From Conexivisphaerales archaeon (GTDB lineage: Archaea; Thermoproteota; Nitrososphaeria; Conexivisphaerales; DTJL01), in assembly GCA_049509455.1 (NCBI GenBank), contig JBEKZX010000011.1, positions 1 through 45,767 of the forward strand: a DNA stretch of 45,767 nt. Reading direction: 5' to 3'. Below the pieces are notes generated by a model. It saw only the letters and a list, made by a program, of their open reading frames with translations. It was not told where the DNA came from and did no database searches. The position numbers and the translations under genes are program-made. This document shows, in pieces, positions 3,383 to 6,068 of the stretch (position 1 is its first letter; every line of letters begins with the position of its first letter).

Positions 3383-4339
3383 TTGAGCGAAGATCATCCA
3401 TATGACAAGGCCGTCACCGAGGCCGTCGACAAGGTCCTCCCCAGCGTAGTCACTATCTCAACCATGCAGGTTGTCGAAGACCTGTTCCGGGTCCACCCCG
3501 TGCAGGGGATGGGCAGCGGCGTCGTCGTCCACCCCGAGGGGTTCATAGCGACCAACAACCACGTGGTCGTCAACTCCCGTGAGTTGACGATCATGACGAC
3601 CGGCGGCAAGCAAATCGGGGCCATAGTAGTGGGGGTCGACCCCTCCACCGACGTGGCCGTCGTCAAGGTCGAGGACAAGAACCTCCCAGTCGCGGAGATC
3701 GCCGACTCCGAAGAGCTCAAGATCGGCCAGACGGTGCTGGCCATCGGTAACCCCTTCGGTTTCTTCCTAGGCGGCCCCACCGTCACGAGAGGCGTCGTGA
3801 GCGCCGTGCACAGGGACATCAGCCTCGGAGAGAACATCTTCGAGGACCTGATCCAGACGGACGCGGCCATCAACCCTGGGAACAGCGGCGGCCCCCTTGT
3901 GGACCTCCACGGCCACGTGGTGGGCCTCAATACTGCCATGATCCCCTACGCCCAGGGAATCGGCTTCGCCGTGCCCGCGACGATAGTAAAGAAGGCCGTG
4001 GATGACCTCATTCTCTATGGGAAGGGCATGAGGACCTGGCTAGGGATCGCCGGCTTCACCGTCGACAAGAACGTCGCCGCGCACTACAGGTTGCAGGTGA
4101 ATGAAGGTGTGGCGGTGGCAGGCGTGGCGAAAGGAGGTCCAGCCAACAGGGCGGGGGTAAGCCCCGGAGACGTCATAACGGGCCTGGACTCGAACCAGAT
4201 AAGGACGATCAAGGAGCTGAGAAAGTACGTCAGGTCTCGCAAGCCAGGCGACGAGCTGCTCATCGAGCTGTTGAGGAACTCGAGGAAGTACCAGGTGAAG
4301 GCGGTTCTTTCTCAAGAATGGGCGCCCTCCTCCCGCTAA
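3383..4339 (+). CDS. htrA: HtrA/DegP-like serine protease with PDZ domain
   Basis: TNNHVV, DVAVVK, QTDAAINPGNSGGPL triad motifs; C-terminal PDZ. Confidence 0.92.
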   Translation: MSEDHPYDKAVTEAVDKVLPSVVTISTMQVVEDLFRVHPVQGMGSGVVVHPEGFIATNNHVVVNSRELTIMTTGGKQIGAIVVGVDPSTDVAVVKVEDKNLPVAEIADSEELKIGQTVLAIGNPFGFFLGGPTVTRGVVSAVHRDISLGENIFEDLIQTDAAINPGNSGGPLVDLHGHVVGLNTAMIPYAQGIGFAVPATIVKKAVDDLILYGKGMRTWLGIAGFTVDKNVAAHYRLQVNEGVAVAGVAKGGPANRAGVSPGDVITGLDSNQIRTIKELRKYVRSRKPGDELLIELLRNSRKYQVKAVLSQEWAPSSR

Positions 4340-4388
4340 GGAGAAGAGAATTCAGATTGGAAGAAATGGGAAGACGAGGCCTGACCGT

Positions 4389-4575
4389 CTAGGGGACGAC
4401 CCAGTTCTGGCCGGCTCTTCGCTTGAGGTCAAAACGCTTCCTGTACTTCTCCCTCATGTTCCTCTTTGGAATGTTAGAGACCCTAACCCTGCCCTGTAAC
4501 TTGGGTGTCTGACTGCGGACTGACAGGTGCCATGTGGCAATTCCCGGCCTTGGTCAGCGACCCGTGCGTTGGCAA
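4389..4575 (-). CDS. rps30e: 30S ribosomal protein S30e; two exons (4541-4575 and 4389-4521)
   Basis: TTG start gives MPTHGSLTKAG; another frame gives VRSQTPKLQGR..KRFDLKRRAGQNWVVP*; removing 4522-4540 leaves 168 nt encoding 55 aa with GSLTKAGKVRSQTPK restored. Confidence 0.93.
4522..4540 (-). other. Putative 19-nt bulge-helix-bulge (BHB) intron in rps30e mRNA
   Basis: GGC/GUC exon helix, CGGG/CCUG 4-bp central helix, 3-nt bulges AAU and UCA, UGCC/GGCA intron stem; predicted cuts restore the reading frame. Confidence 0.85.
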
Positions 4576-4582
4576 CTCCTTT

Positions 4583-4621
4583 ACCTCCTTTACGAATTGC
4601 GTGATTCAGGCCACTATATAA
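4583..4621 (-). promoter_or_regulatory. TATA-like box and Shine-Dalgarno site of rps30e
   Basis: TTATATA (4615-4621) and AAGGAGGT (4583-4590) upstream of the TTG at 4575. Confidence 0.65.
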
Positions 4622-4793
4622 TTCTAGCTCTCCAAGTCGGTCGAACAAGCCCAGCAAGACGGGCCAGGCTTCAGATGGCAGACGGCCAGCACGATGGGCT
4701 GCGTAGCCCTCGAGATGGACGCCCCGTTGGAGGCTGCTGAAGGGCCCTTGACAAGGTTTTAAACGAGTCCGGGGCTACCATGGAAGGGGCTAG

Positions 4794-6068
4794 ATGTATC
4801 GTTTGAAAGCTAGGCTCTTCCTGTGCGAGGCCGGGCTGGCTCTCCTTGACGAGAAGGGCGAGCCGCTCGCCGCAGCGAGGTTCCAAGACGACCTCTACCG
4901 GAAGTTCAAGACACTGAGCGTCGGCCTGAGTGTCGAAGAGTTCGATACGATTATGGACTCCGCAAAATCCAAGGGCGTCCAAGACCTGGTGGTCCCGTAC
5001 CCTGAGTTGGGTCCTCTGGCCGAGGAGAAGGGCTTCAAGGTCACCATAAAAGCCGAAGACCGAGAGAACCTGGAGAGCATCAAGGACATGGTCATGGTGA
5101 AGTCCGGGCTGGCCTACAGCGCCGAGGAGGTGCTTGAGATAATCAGGGAGTTCGCCGTTCGGGACAGCGAAGAGAAGATCCGCGAAGCCGCGGCCCATCC
5201 CGACCTGCAGATAGTCCAGTCCATCAACAGCGTGGACGAGCTGGACAAGATATCCAACCTTGAAGCCATGAGAGTGAGAGAGTGGTATGGCCTCCACTTC
5301 CCGGAACTGGACGGCCTGGTCCAAGACCCCATGGCGTACTGCAGGATCGTCGCCGACGTGGGGCTCAGGTCCAACTGCACTGCGGAGAAGCTCCAGCCCA
5401 CGGGCTTCAGCGAAGCGAAGATCTCCGCCATCCTGGAGGCCGCCGACAAGTCCAAAGGCGGAGAGCTGCGCCCCGAAGACCTTGATGCACTGCTGCTCCT
5501 GGCCGCAGAGGCCGTCTCCACGGGGAAGCTCAGGGACAAGATGCTCCGCCACGTCGAGAGGAACATGGCCAAGCTCTGCCCCAACCTCACCGTAATGGCG
5601 GGAGCGGGGATTGGCGCACGGCTCATAGCCAAGGCGGGGAGCCTCAAGCGCATGGCCGAAATGCCGGCCTCGACCGTGCAGGTCTTGGGCGCCGAGAAGG
5701 CCCTGTTCAGGGCCCTCAAGACGGGCGGGAGGCCCCCCAAGCACGGCATCATATTCCAACATCCCGCCATCCATGCCGCACCCATCTGGCAGAGAGGGAA
5801 GGTGGCCCGTCTCCTGGGCGCGAAGCTTGTGCTCGCCGCCAGGATCGACTACTACTCCGGCAAGCTAAACCAGCAACTCGTCGATAAGATGAATGCAAAG
5901 CTCGAGGAGATCAAGAAGAAGTACCCTGAGCCAAAGCCCGGACAGCCCAGAAAGGAGCAGGAGCAGAGGGGCGACCGGAGGGGCTACAGGGAGAAGAGGG
6001 ACCATCGCAACCGCGGCGGCTTCAGCGGAAGAGGAAGGGATGACTCTAGAGCCGGACGCGGACGCTGA
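4794..6068 (+). CDS. nop5: Box C/D sRNP scaffold protein Nop5 (Nop56/58)
   Basis: EWYGLHFPEL, QVLGAEKALFRAL..PPKHGIIFQHP, ARIDYY motifs. Confidence 0.96.
   Translation: MYRLKARLFLCEAGLALLDEKGEPLAAARFQDDLYRKFKTLSVGLSVEEFDTIMDSAKSKGVQDLVVPYPELGPLAEEKGFKVTIKAEDRENLESIKDMVMVKSGLAYSAEEVLEIIREFAVRDSEEKIREAAAHPDLQIVQSINSVDELDKISNLEAMRVREWYGLHFPELDGLVQDPMAYCRIVADVGLRSNCTAEKLQPTGFSEAKISAILEAADKSKGGELRPEDLDALLLLAAEAVSTGKLRDKMLRHVERNMAKLCPNLTVMAGAGIGARLIAKAGSLKRMAEMPASTVQVLGAEKALFRALKTGGRPPKHGIIFQHPAIHAAPIWQRGKVARLLGAKLVLAARIDYYSGKLNQQLVDKMNAKLEEIKKKYPEPKPGQPRKEQEQRGDRRGYREKRDHRNRGGFSGRGRDDSRAGRGR

Follow-up and report, generated by a model that had tools for sequence, protein, structure and literature searches.

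By 2009 the splicing of cbf5 pre-mRNA was the only archaeal case to have been confirmed (Yokobori et al., PMC2738675), and Schwarz et al. (2020; PMC7714728), in adding an intron located in a 5′ untranslated region (UTR) of Haloferax, named cbf5 as the sole other case. The element considered here is an insert of 19 nucleotides (nt) that interrupts rps30e, the gene of ribosomal protein S30e (eS30), on the minus strand of a 45,767-nt stretch of DNA (GenBank contig JBEKZX010000011.1, positions 1 to 45,767, hereafter "the window") of a Conexivisphaerales archaeon from peat (Nitrososphaeria/Thaumarchaeota; assembly GCA_049509455.1, a metagenome-assembled genome of 2.05 Mb, 95.5% complete, hereafter G000). 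It is very probable that this insert, at positions 4522–4540, is an archaeal bulge–helix–bulge (BHB) intron that lies within a single-copy coding sequence and is spliced from the mRNA. As in the first-pass annotation of the window, which knew of no such report, no paper on an intron in S30e or on mRNA introns of Thaumarchaeota was found, subscription journals being largely outside the literature search.

The cbf5 intron of Crenarchaeota (Watanabe 2002; PMC2738675) is, like the insert in rps30e, a short BHB-bounded insertion within a coding sequence. Cutting by the tRNA-splicing endonuclease (EndA), lineage-specific presence and precise loss, all of them properties of the cbf5 introns, would equally apply to rps30e, and both kinds of insertion are easily miscalled as frameshifts by gene finders. 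On the other hand, the host gene is rps30e instead of cbf5, so that the mechanism would be shared while the S30e intron falls outside the cbf5 family, and the lineage is Nitrososphaeria (Thaumarchaeota) instead of Sulfolobales and Desulfurococcales. Furthermore, the motif in rps30e is of the strict hBHBh′ type, whereas most cbf5 introns are relaxed (PMC2738675), and the cbf5 splice has been shown experimentally, whereas that of S30e is known from sequence alone.

The BHB introns of pre-tRNAs, those of G000 included, have the same geometry, cut rule and similar size, and presumably depend on the same enzymes; here, however, the substrate would be an mRNA lacking a tRNA body, in which the exon helix consists of codons and is constrained by coding. 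In the HVO_1309 transcript of Haloferax volcanii (PMC7714728) the splicing endonuclease processes a BHB carried by an mRNA, as is proposed for S30e, but that intron is found in the untranslated leader, unlike the S30e insert, which interrupts a codon and whose removal is needed to make the protein. A more distant likeness is offered by the HAC1/XBP1 splicing carried out by IRE1 and RtcB, which is also spliceosome-independent, removes a short frame-shifting intron (26 nt in XBP1) and relies on joining of the tRNA-ligase type; it differs in using IRE1 and not EndA, in recognizing a motif of two stem–loops and in being regulated by stress.

Read from its TTG start, the unspliced rps30e frame encodes M/L-P-T-H-G-S-L-T-K-A-G followed by unrelated residues, and this open reading frame (ORF; 4483–4575) ends at TAG 4483–4485 after 30 amino acids, its product having no match to the Pfam family Ribosomal_S30. 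Excision of exactly 4522–4540 joins GGG AA to A GTC, giving GGG AAA GTC and a 55-residue S30e that scores 34.1 bits against Ribosomal_S30 (cut-off 27 bits), as opposed to 10 bits for exon 2 alone. The 11 residues encoded by exon 1 are all identical (11/11) to those of a congener's S30e in a tblastn comparison, and the spliced protein aligns gap-free with 20 relatives, G11, K12, V13 and R14 being invariant. The insert lies within the K12 codon, which it divides into AA/A, and according to the protein alignment this codon is rebuilt by one excision only, the predicted exon junction consisting of GCCGGGAA joined to AGTCCGCAG.

The flanks of the insert form a complete hBHBh′ motif, composed of an outer helix (h), a central helix (H), two bulges and an inner helix (h′) (Table 1), and this structure is the minimum-free-energy fold of positions 4510–4555 of the minus strand. 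For the strict form, with four of four central pairs, an h of 3 or more base pairs (bp) and an h′ of 4 or more, the frequency in G000 is 2.2 × 10−5 when position and length are both fixed. In the 5′-to-3′ direction of either strand the 4-bp helix precedes the bulge, and the cut is placed behind the bulge's second nucleotide; applied to the tRNA-Lys(UUU) of G000, which is encoded on contig C1 and has flanking helices of 5 bp, this geometry and cut rule give exactly the intron boundaries assigned by ARAGORN (start 39, length 21). Thus, what the first-pass annotation had read from the letters of the window, namely the motif, the premature stop after 30 residues and the 55-residue protein obtained by excision, has stood up to folding, profile and alignment analyses.

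The same site was compared among relatives by searching S30e in 36 genomes of the order to which G000 belongs and in 401 genomes sampled from the class. In the congeners G002 and G004 the gene is uninterrupted, with GGG AAA GT at the site, 91–93% identity and the 19 nt precisely absent, whereas in the congener G003 the same codon carries an insert of 22 nt that differs in sequence and yet forms a BHB (GGGC/GCUC, bulges AAA and CGA, CACCA/UGGUG). Inserts of 20 nt with a BHB occur at this codon also in a second family of the class sample (G332, G382, G385 and G409, with G377 as fifth member); its S30e resembles that of Candidatus Gagatemarchaeum, the naming being by inference, and its order also includes the two largest families of the sample, which we take to be Nitrosopumilaceae and Nitrososphaeraceae. 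Genomes flagged as unpublished (G402, G123, G356, G318, G222, G274 and G458) underlie none of the claims made here. A scan of metagenome contigs in which the exon flanks were fixed and a gap of 14–40 nt was left free between them matched 47 contigs and provided 27 further distinct S30e sequences having a 19–20-nt insert at K12. The distinct matches of the scan pattern that are not S30e, which act as a built-in negative control, lack the BHB in eight cases out of eight.

The 33 distinct intron-bearing S30e sequences collected in this way were aligned (alignment A3) and used for a covariation analysis. All 33 restore the codon for Lys-12 on excision, and 32 have every pair of the central helix formed, the remaining one having a single mismatch; the insert measures 19–22 nt and its loop is not constrained in sequence. 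The cells of the alignment that belong to predicted pairs are paired in 97.2% of the cases, compared to 76.0% in shuffles, and those with changes on both sides number 84, compared to 26, neither value being reached in any of 500 shuffles; the covariation score amounts to 0.561, compared to 0.166 for shuffled data, and is 0.10 or less when the columns of the 3′ partner are slid by 1–3 columns. Compensatory changes affect 7 of the 12 pairs, namely every one of the five inner-helix pairs and two of those in the central helix. No support of this kind comes from the outer helix, because it is fixed by the codons and by the search pattern; the test is not circular, because the intron half of H and the whole of h′ sat in the unconstrained gap. 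The presence or absence of the insert at one site among relatives, together with strong BHB covariation, bears out the claim made from a single sequence.

The candidate intron belongs to a family occupying one codon in at least two lineages of Nitrososphaeria, and its presence and absence among close relatives fit an old intron that would have undergone repeated precise losses. One metagenome contig (L270) carries an S30e of the type found in the window and an intron whose inner helix (UGCC.../...GGCA) is like that of the window, so that this intron type would predate the genus. Many metagenome S30e sequences and G377 contain a second insert of 31–46 nt that splits codon 7 as C/TC and whose central helix reads GAAG/CUUC or GGAG/CUCC; its bulges are of 3 nt, its outer helix is weak and its inner helix comprises 4–6 bp (GCAGC.../...GCUGC). 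Removal of both inserts yields P-T-H-G-S-[L/I/V/F]-T-K-A-G-K-V-R; the relatives having both would therefore possess two introns in a gene of 55 codons, while the rps30e of the window is without the codon-7 insert.

The enzymes for such a reaction are encoded in G000. Two EndA paralogues, both with domains PF01974 and PF02778, are present: one of 181 residues matches the catalytic half of the dimeric EndA models (alpha-like) and one of 269 residues matches the other half (beta-like), its match to the beta-subunit models being weak. The endonuclease of G000 is probably an (alpha-beta)2 heterotetramer of these two proteins, and enzymes of this heteromeric (alpha-beta)2 type also accept BHB motifs beyond the tRNA context (PMC2738675, PMC5829648). 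RtcB is also encoded (PF01139, 490 bits). Its gene, located beyond the window and adjoining that of the 269-residue EndA paralogue, so that two splicing enzymes are neighbours, is a single open frame of 995 amino acids (C108:22430-25716, L032–L034); the Pfam match falls in two parts (1–54 and 45–426) that are ~1.3 kb apart, and the interruption looks like an intein. As to the tRNA substrates, 16 of the 38 tRNAs called by ARAGORN in G000 have introns, mostly of 12–36 nt and several at non-canonical positions. Some multi-intron tRNAs were probably missed, since only 38 tRNAs were found, and two of the called introns are implausibly long (772 and 1333 nt) and may be false.

Since the only S30e gene found in G000 is broken by an insert resembling a tRNA intron, the rps30e mRNA is very probably cut and rejoined. 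In the mechanism proposed, rps30e would be transcribed with the insert included and the pre-mRNA would fold locally into the hBHBh′ structure; the tRNA-splicing endonuclease would then cut at AA/U and UC/A, that is, between the second and third nucleotides of each 3-nt bulge, and an RtcB-type ligase would join the exons, thereby rebuilding AAA (Lys-12) and the frame of the 55-residue S30e, the intron being released, probably as a small circle.

Some observations weigh against this splicing mechanism. The 46-nt stretch containing the motif folds with an energy no better than that of shuffled sequences (z = −0.29), and the outer helix has only 3 bp, one of which is G-U, and never varies. Furthermore, G000 is distributed over 140 contigs, so that a second S30e in unassembled DNA is possible, and cleavage, ligation and the circular form of the intron are inferred from the comparison of DNA sequences. 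Each of the rival explanations, on the other hand, conflicts with at least two of the following: the motif, the fit of the frame, the compensatory changes, the selection, the single copy and the enzyme genes.

Very unlikely, yet surviving better than the other rivals, is the possibility that the BHB is an EndA site serving mRNA turnover or regulation, with cleavage not followed by productive ligation, or that the two halves of the gene give rise to two separate peptides. A role of the endonuclease beyond the repair of coding sequences has a precedent in Haloferax, where EndA cuts a BHB in a 5′ UTR (PMC7714728). However, the first ATG, GTG or TTG start of the exon-2 frame opens an ORF of 22 amino acids only, for which reason the conserved VRSQTPK part could not be translated on its own; moreover, the split codon is always restored to Lys, and in the joined frame purifying selection acts on exon 2.

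The latter selection bears also on the possibility, highly improbable in our judgement, that the 19-nt insertion inactivated a decaying rps30e, S30e being dispensable or supplied from elsewhere. The stop after 30 residues, the small size and lineage-restricted occurrence of this ribosomal protein and the fact that the G000 sequence is not closed would be in line with a pseudogene. Nevertheless, in the spliced frame the comparison between G000 and G003, both intron-bearing, gives 25 synonymous and 7 non-synonymous changes and a ratio of non-synonymous to synonymous rates (dN/dS) of 0.034, whereas the comparison with the intronless congeners gives 0.05–0.08; these low values in the joined frame (0.03–0.08 overall) indicate that the interrupted genes are maintained as coding genes. 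Decay is likewise at odds with the reconstruction of the Lys-12 codon in 33 of 33 sequences, with the BHB having been kept through compensatory changes, and with the number of gene copies: a protein search and a permissive tblastn of G000 detected one S30e locus, in two pieces, and a PF04758 profile search of G000 yielded no match, the split copy included. The first-pass annotation had argued against a pseudogene on the basis of the TATA-like box, the Shine–Dalgarno (SD)-like sequence and an intact exon 2; these promoter-like and SD-like signals are indeed retained, and the argument now has in addition the purifying selection and the failure to find another copy in G000.

No better placed is translational recoding, in which the ribosome would hop over the 19 nt, in the manner of phage T4 gene 60, and no RNA would be spliced. 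A hairpin does sit in the gap, read-through would need no RNA processing, and the archaeal cbf5 introns were themselves once mistaken for frameshifting (PMC2738675). However, gene 60 bypassing needs matched take-off and landing codons, whereas the S30e gap, which splits Lys as AA/A, has neither these nor a repeated codon at its edges; the invariant Lys-12 codon arises only from the joining of AA to A at the RNA level. Furthermore, conservation concerns a 4-bp helix that bears two 3-nt bulges, an EndA substrate going beyond a mere hairpin, while the length (19–22 nt) and loop of the insert are free to vary.

The least probable of the rivals is an artefact of assembly or sequencing, or a strain-level indel absent from the living population. 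The insert is short and the genome is metagenome-assembled, but the 19 nt are spanned with zero gaps by contigs of four peat/wetland metagenome runs from four different studies, and homologous inserts are present in six other genomes and in the 27 further distinct metagenome sequences. Thus the insert is found in the contigs of four independent assemblies. A self-splicing group I or group II intron was rejected, the insert being of 19 nt and no Rfam family being present at 4200–4800, where the sole match, to Fibro-purF, reaches 16 bits and falls short of the gathering score of 60; introns of these groups possess a catalytic RNA core that is hundreds of nucleotides long.

If spliced as proposed, rps30e would represent, within the literature searched, the second host gene of an archaeal intron in a coding sequence, one encoding an essential ribosomal protein and belonging to a different major lineage, and the comparative evidence for it is as strong as sequence by itself allows. 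The tRNA-splicing machinery would accordingly have a wider role in the maturation of archaeal mRNAs than that literature documents, and the presence or absence of the intron among close relatives would offer a tractable system in which to study the gain and precise loss of introns in prokaryotes. Since gene callers lose or mis-annotate genes of this kind, S30e would be counted as absent or taken for a pseudogene, an error that distorts the tables of ribosomal-protein presence and absence used in archaeal phylogenomics. It is also conceivable, albeit doubtful, that the S30e introns, one or two to a gene, date far back in Nitrososphaeria and have been kept because their splicing acts as a control point tying ribosomal-protein output to the capacity of EndA and RtcB; were this so, the unspliced message would yield only a 30-residue peptide and the system would constitute a prokaryotic analogue of the regulated mRNA splicing of the HAC1/XBP1 type.

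Further mRNA introns were sought in G000. The cbf5 gene, in which no intron was found in this genome, has one uninterrupted TruB_N match (1–149) within an open frame of 355 amino acids without stops. A motif-first scan of G000 produced ~91,000 loose BHB candidates (14–150 nt), the excision of which was scored for the joining of coding frames by three successive schemes; candidates with the true geometry were no richer than a mirror control, and the scan was dropped because its signal was inseparable from chance. The comparison of G000 with the whole of G004 (1.54 Mb aligned at a median identity of 81%) yielded 209 indels of 10 nt or longer, as well as 47 gaps separating neighbouring alignments; the S30e intron was recovered, and it is the only indel whose strong BHB restores an ORF. 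Other BHB-like indels, with helices of 2 bp and junction peptides unlike protein, were rejected as chance occurrences. The first-pass annotation had surmised that ORF callers may be missing other such genes, but for G000 the idea that there are many finds no backing, S30e being the sole convincing case against this congener. Introns common to both genomes are invisible in this comparison, which therefore indicates that polymorphic mRNA introns are rare and not that S30e is unique.

The same comparison brought to light ~20 clean insertions of 115–370 nt present in one of the two genomes and absent from the other, examples being C35:23779-23899, C64:12617-12762, C103:6369-6594 and C123:700-921 in G000 and C5:425560-425680 and C5:58329-58474 in G004. 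No convincing BHB was found at their ends, and they may represent either small mobile elements or a different, larger type of intron.

Table 1. Positions of the rps30e elements in the window and of the codon-7 inserts in relatives
Feature	Location	Strand	Details
Complete hBHBh′ motif	4518–4549	minus	minimum-free-energy fold, covariation, tRNA-Lys geometry
Outer helix h	GGC 4549–4547 / GUC 4520–4518	minus	3 bp
Central helix H	CGGG 4546–4543 / CCUG 4527–4524	minus	4 bp
Bulges	AAU 4542–4540, UCA 4523–4521	minus	3 nt each, on opposite strands
Inner helix h′	UGCC 4539–4536 / GGCA 4531–4528	minus	4 bp, loop ACAU
TATA-like box TTATATA	4615–4621	minus	read in the sequence upstream of rps30e; putative promoter
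SD-like GGAGGT	4583–4588	minus	7 nt ahead of the TTG start; putative function
Exon 1 of rps30e	4541–4575	minus	TTG start 4575–4573; 11 codons and AA of Lys-12
Insert (candidate BHB intron)	4522–4540	minus	19 nt, TTGCCACATGGCACCTGTC; from nt 3 of the 5′ bulge through nt 2 of the 3′ bulge
Exon 2 of rps30e	4389–4521	minus	last base of Lys-12, 43 codons, stop TAG 4391–4389
Codon-7 BHB-type insert	L233, L236, L241, L247, L254, L255, L256, L260		metagenome contigs
Codon-7 BHB-type insert	L262, L267, L273, L274, L235, L276		metagenome contigs
Codon-7 BHB-type insert	L280 (G377:C53:1650-2350)

Upstream of the gene, the block TAGAATTATATAG at the TATA-like box is common to G000, G002 and G003 (alignment A1). 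The S30e start is apparently non-ATG throughout the family, being TTG in G000, apparently CTG in G002 and G003 and ATA in G007 and G008, and an SD-like GGAGG is found a few bases 5′ of each of these starts (loci L001, L008, L004 and L006). Within the window rps30e diverges from a Nop56/58-type gene on the plus strand (4794–6068), from which it is separated by a spacer of ~220 bp (4576–4793), and an ORF for a trypsin/HtrA-like protease (plus strand, 3383–4339) ends ~50 nt short of the rps30e stop.
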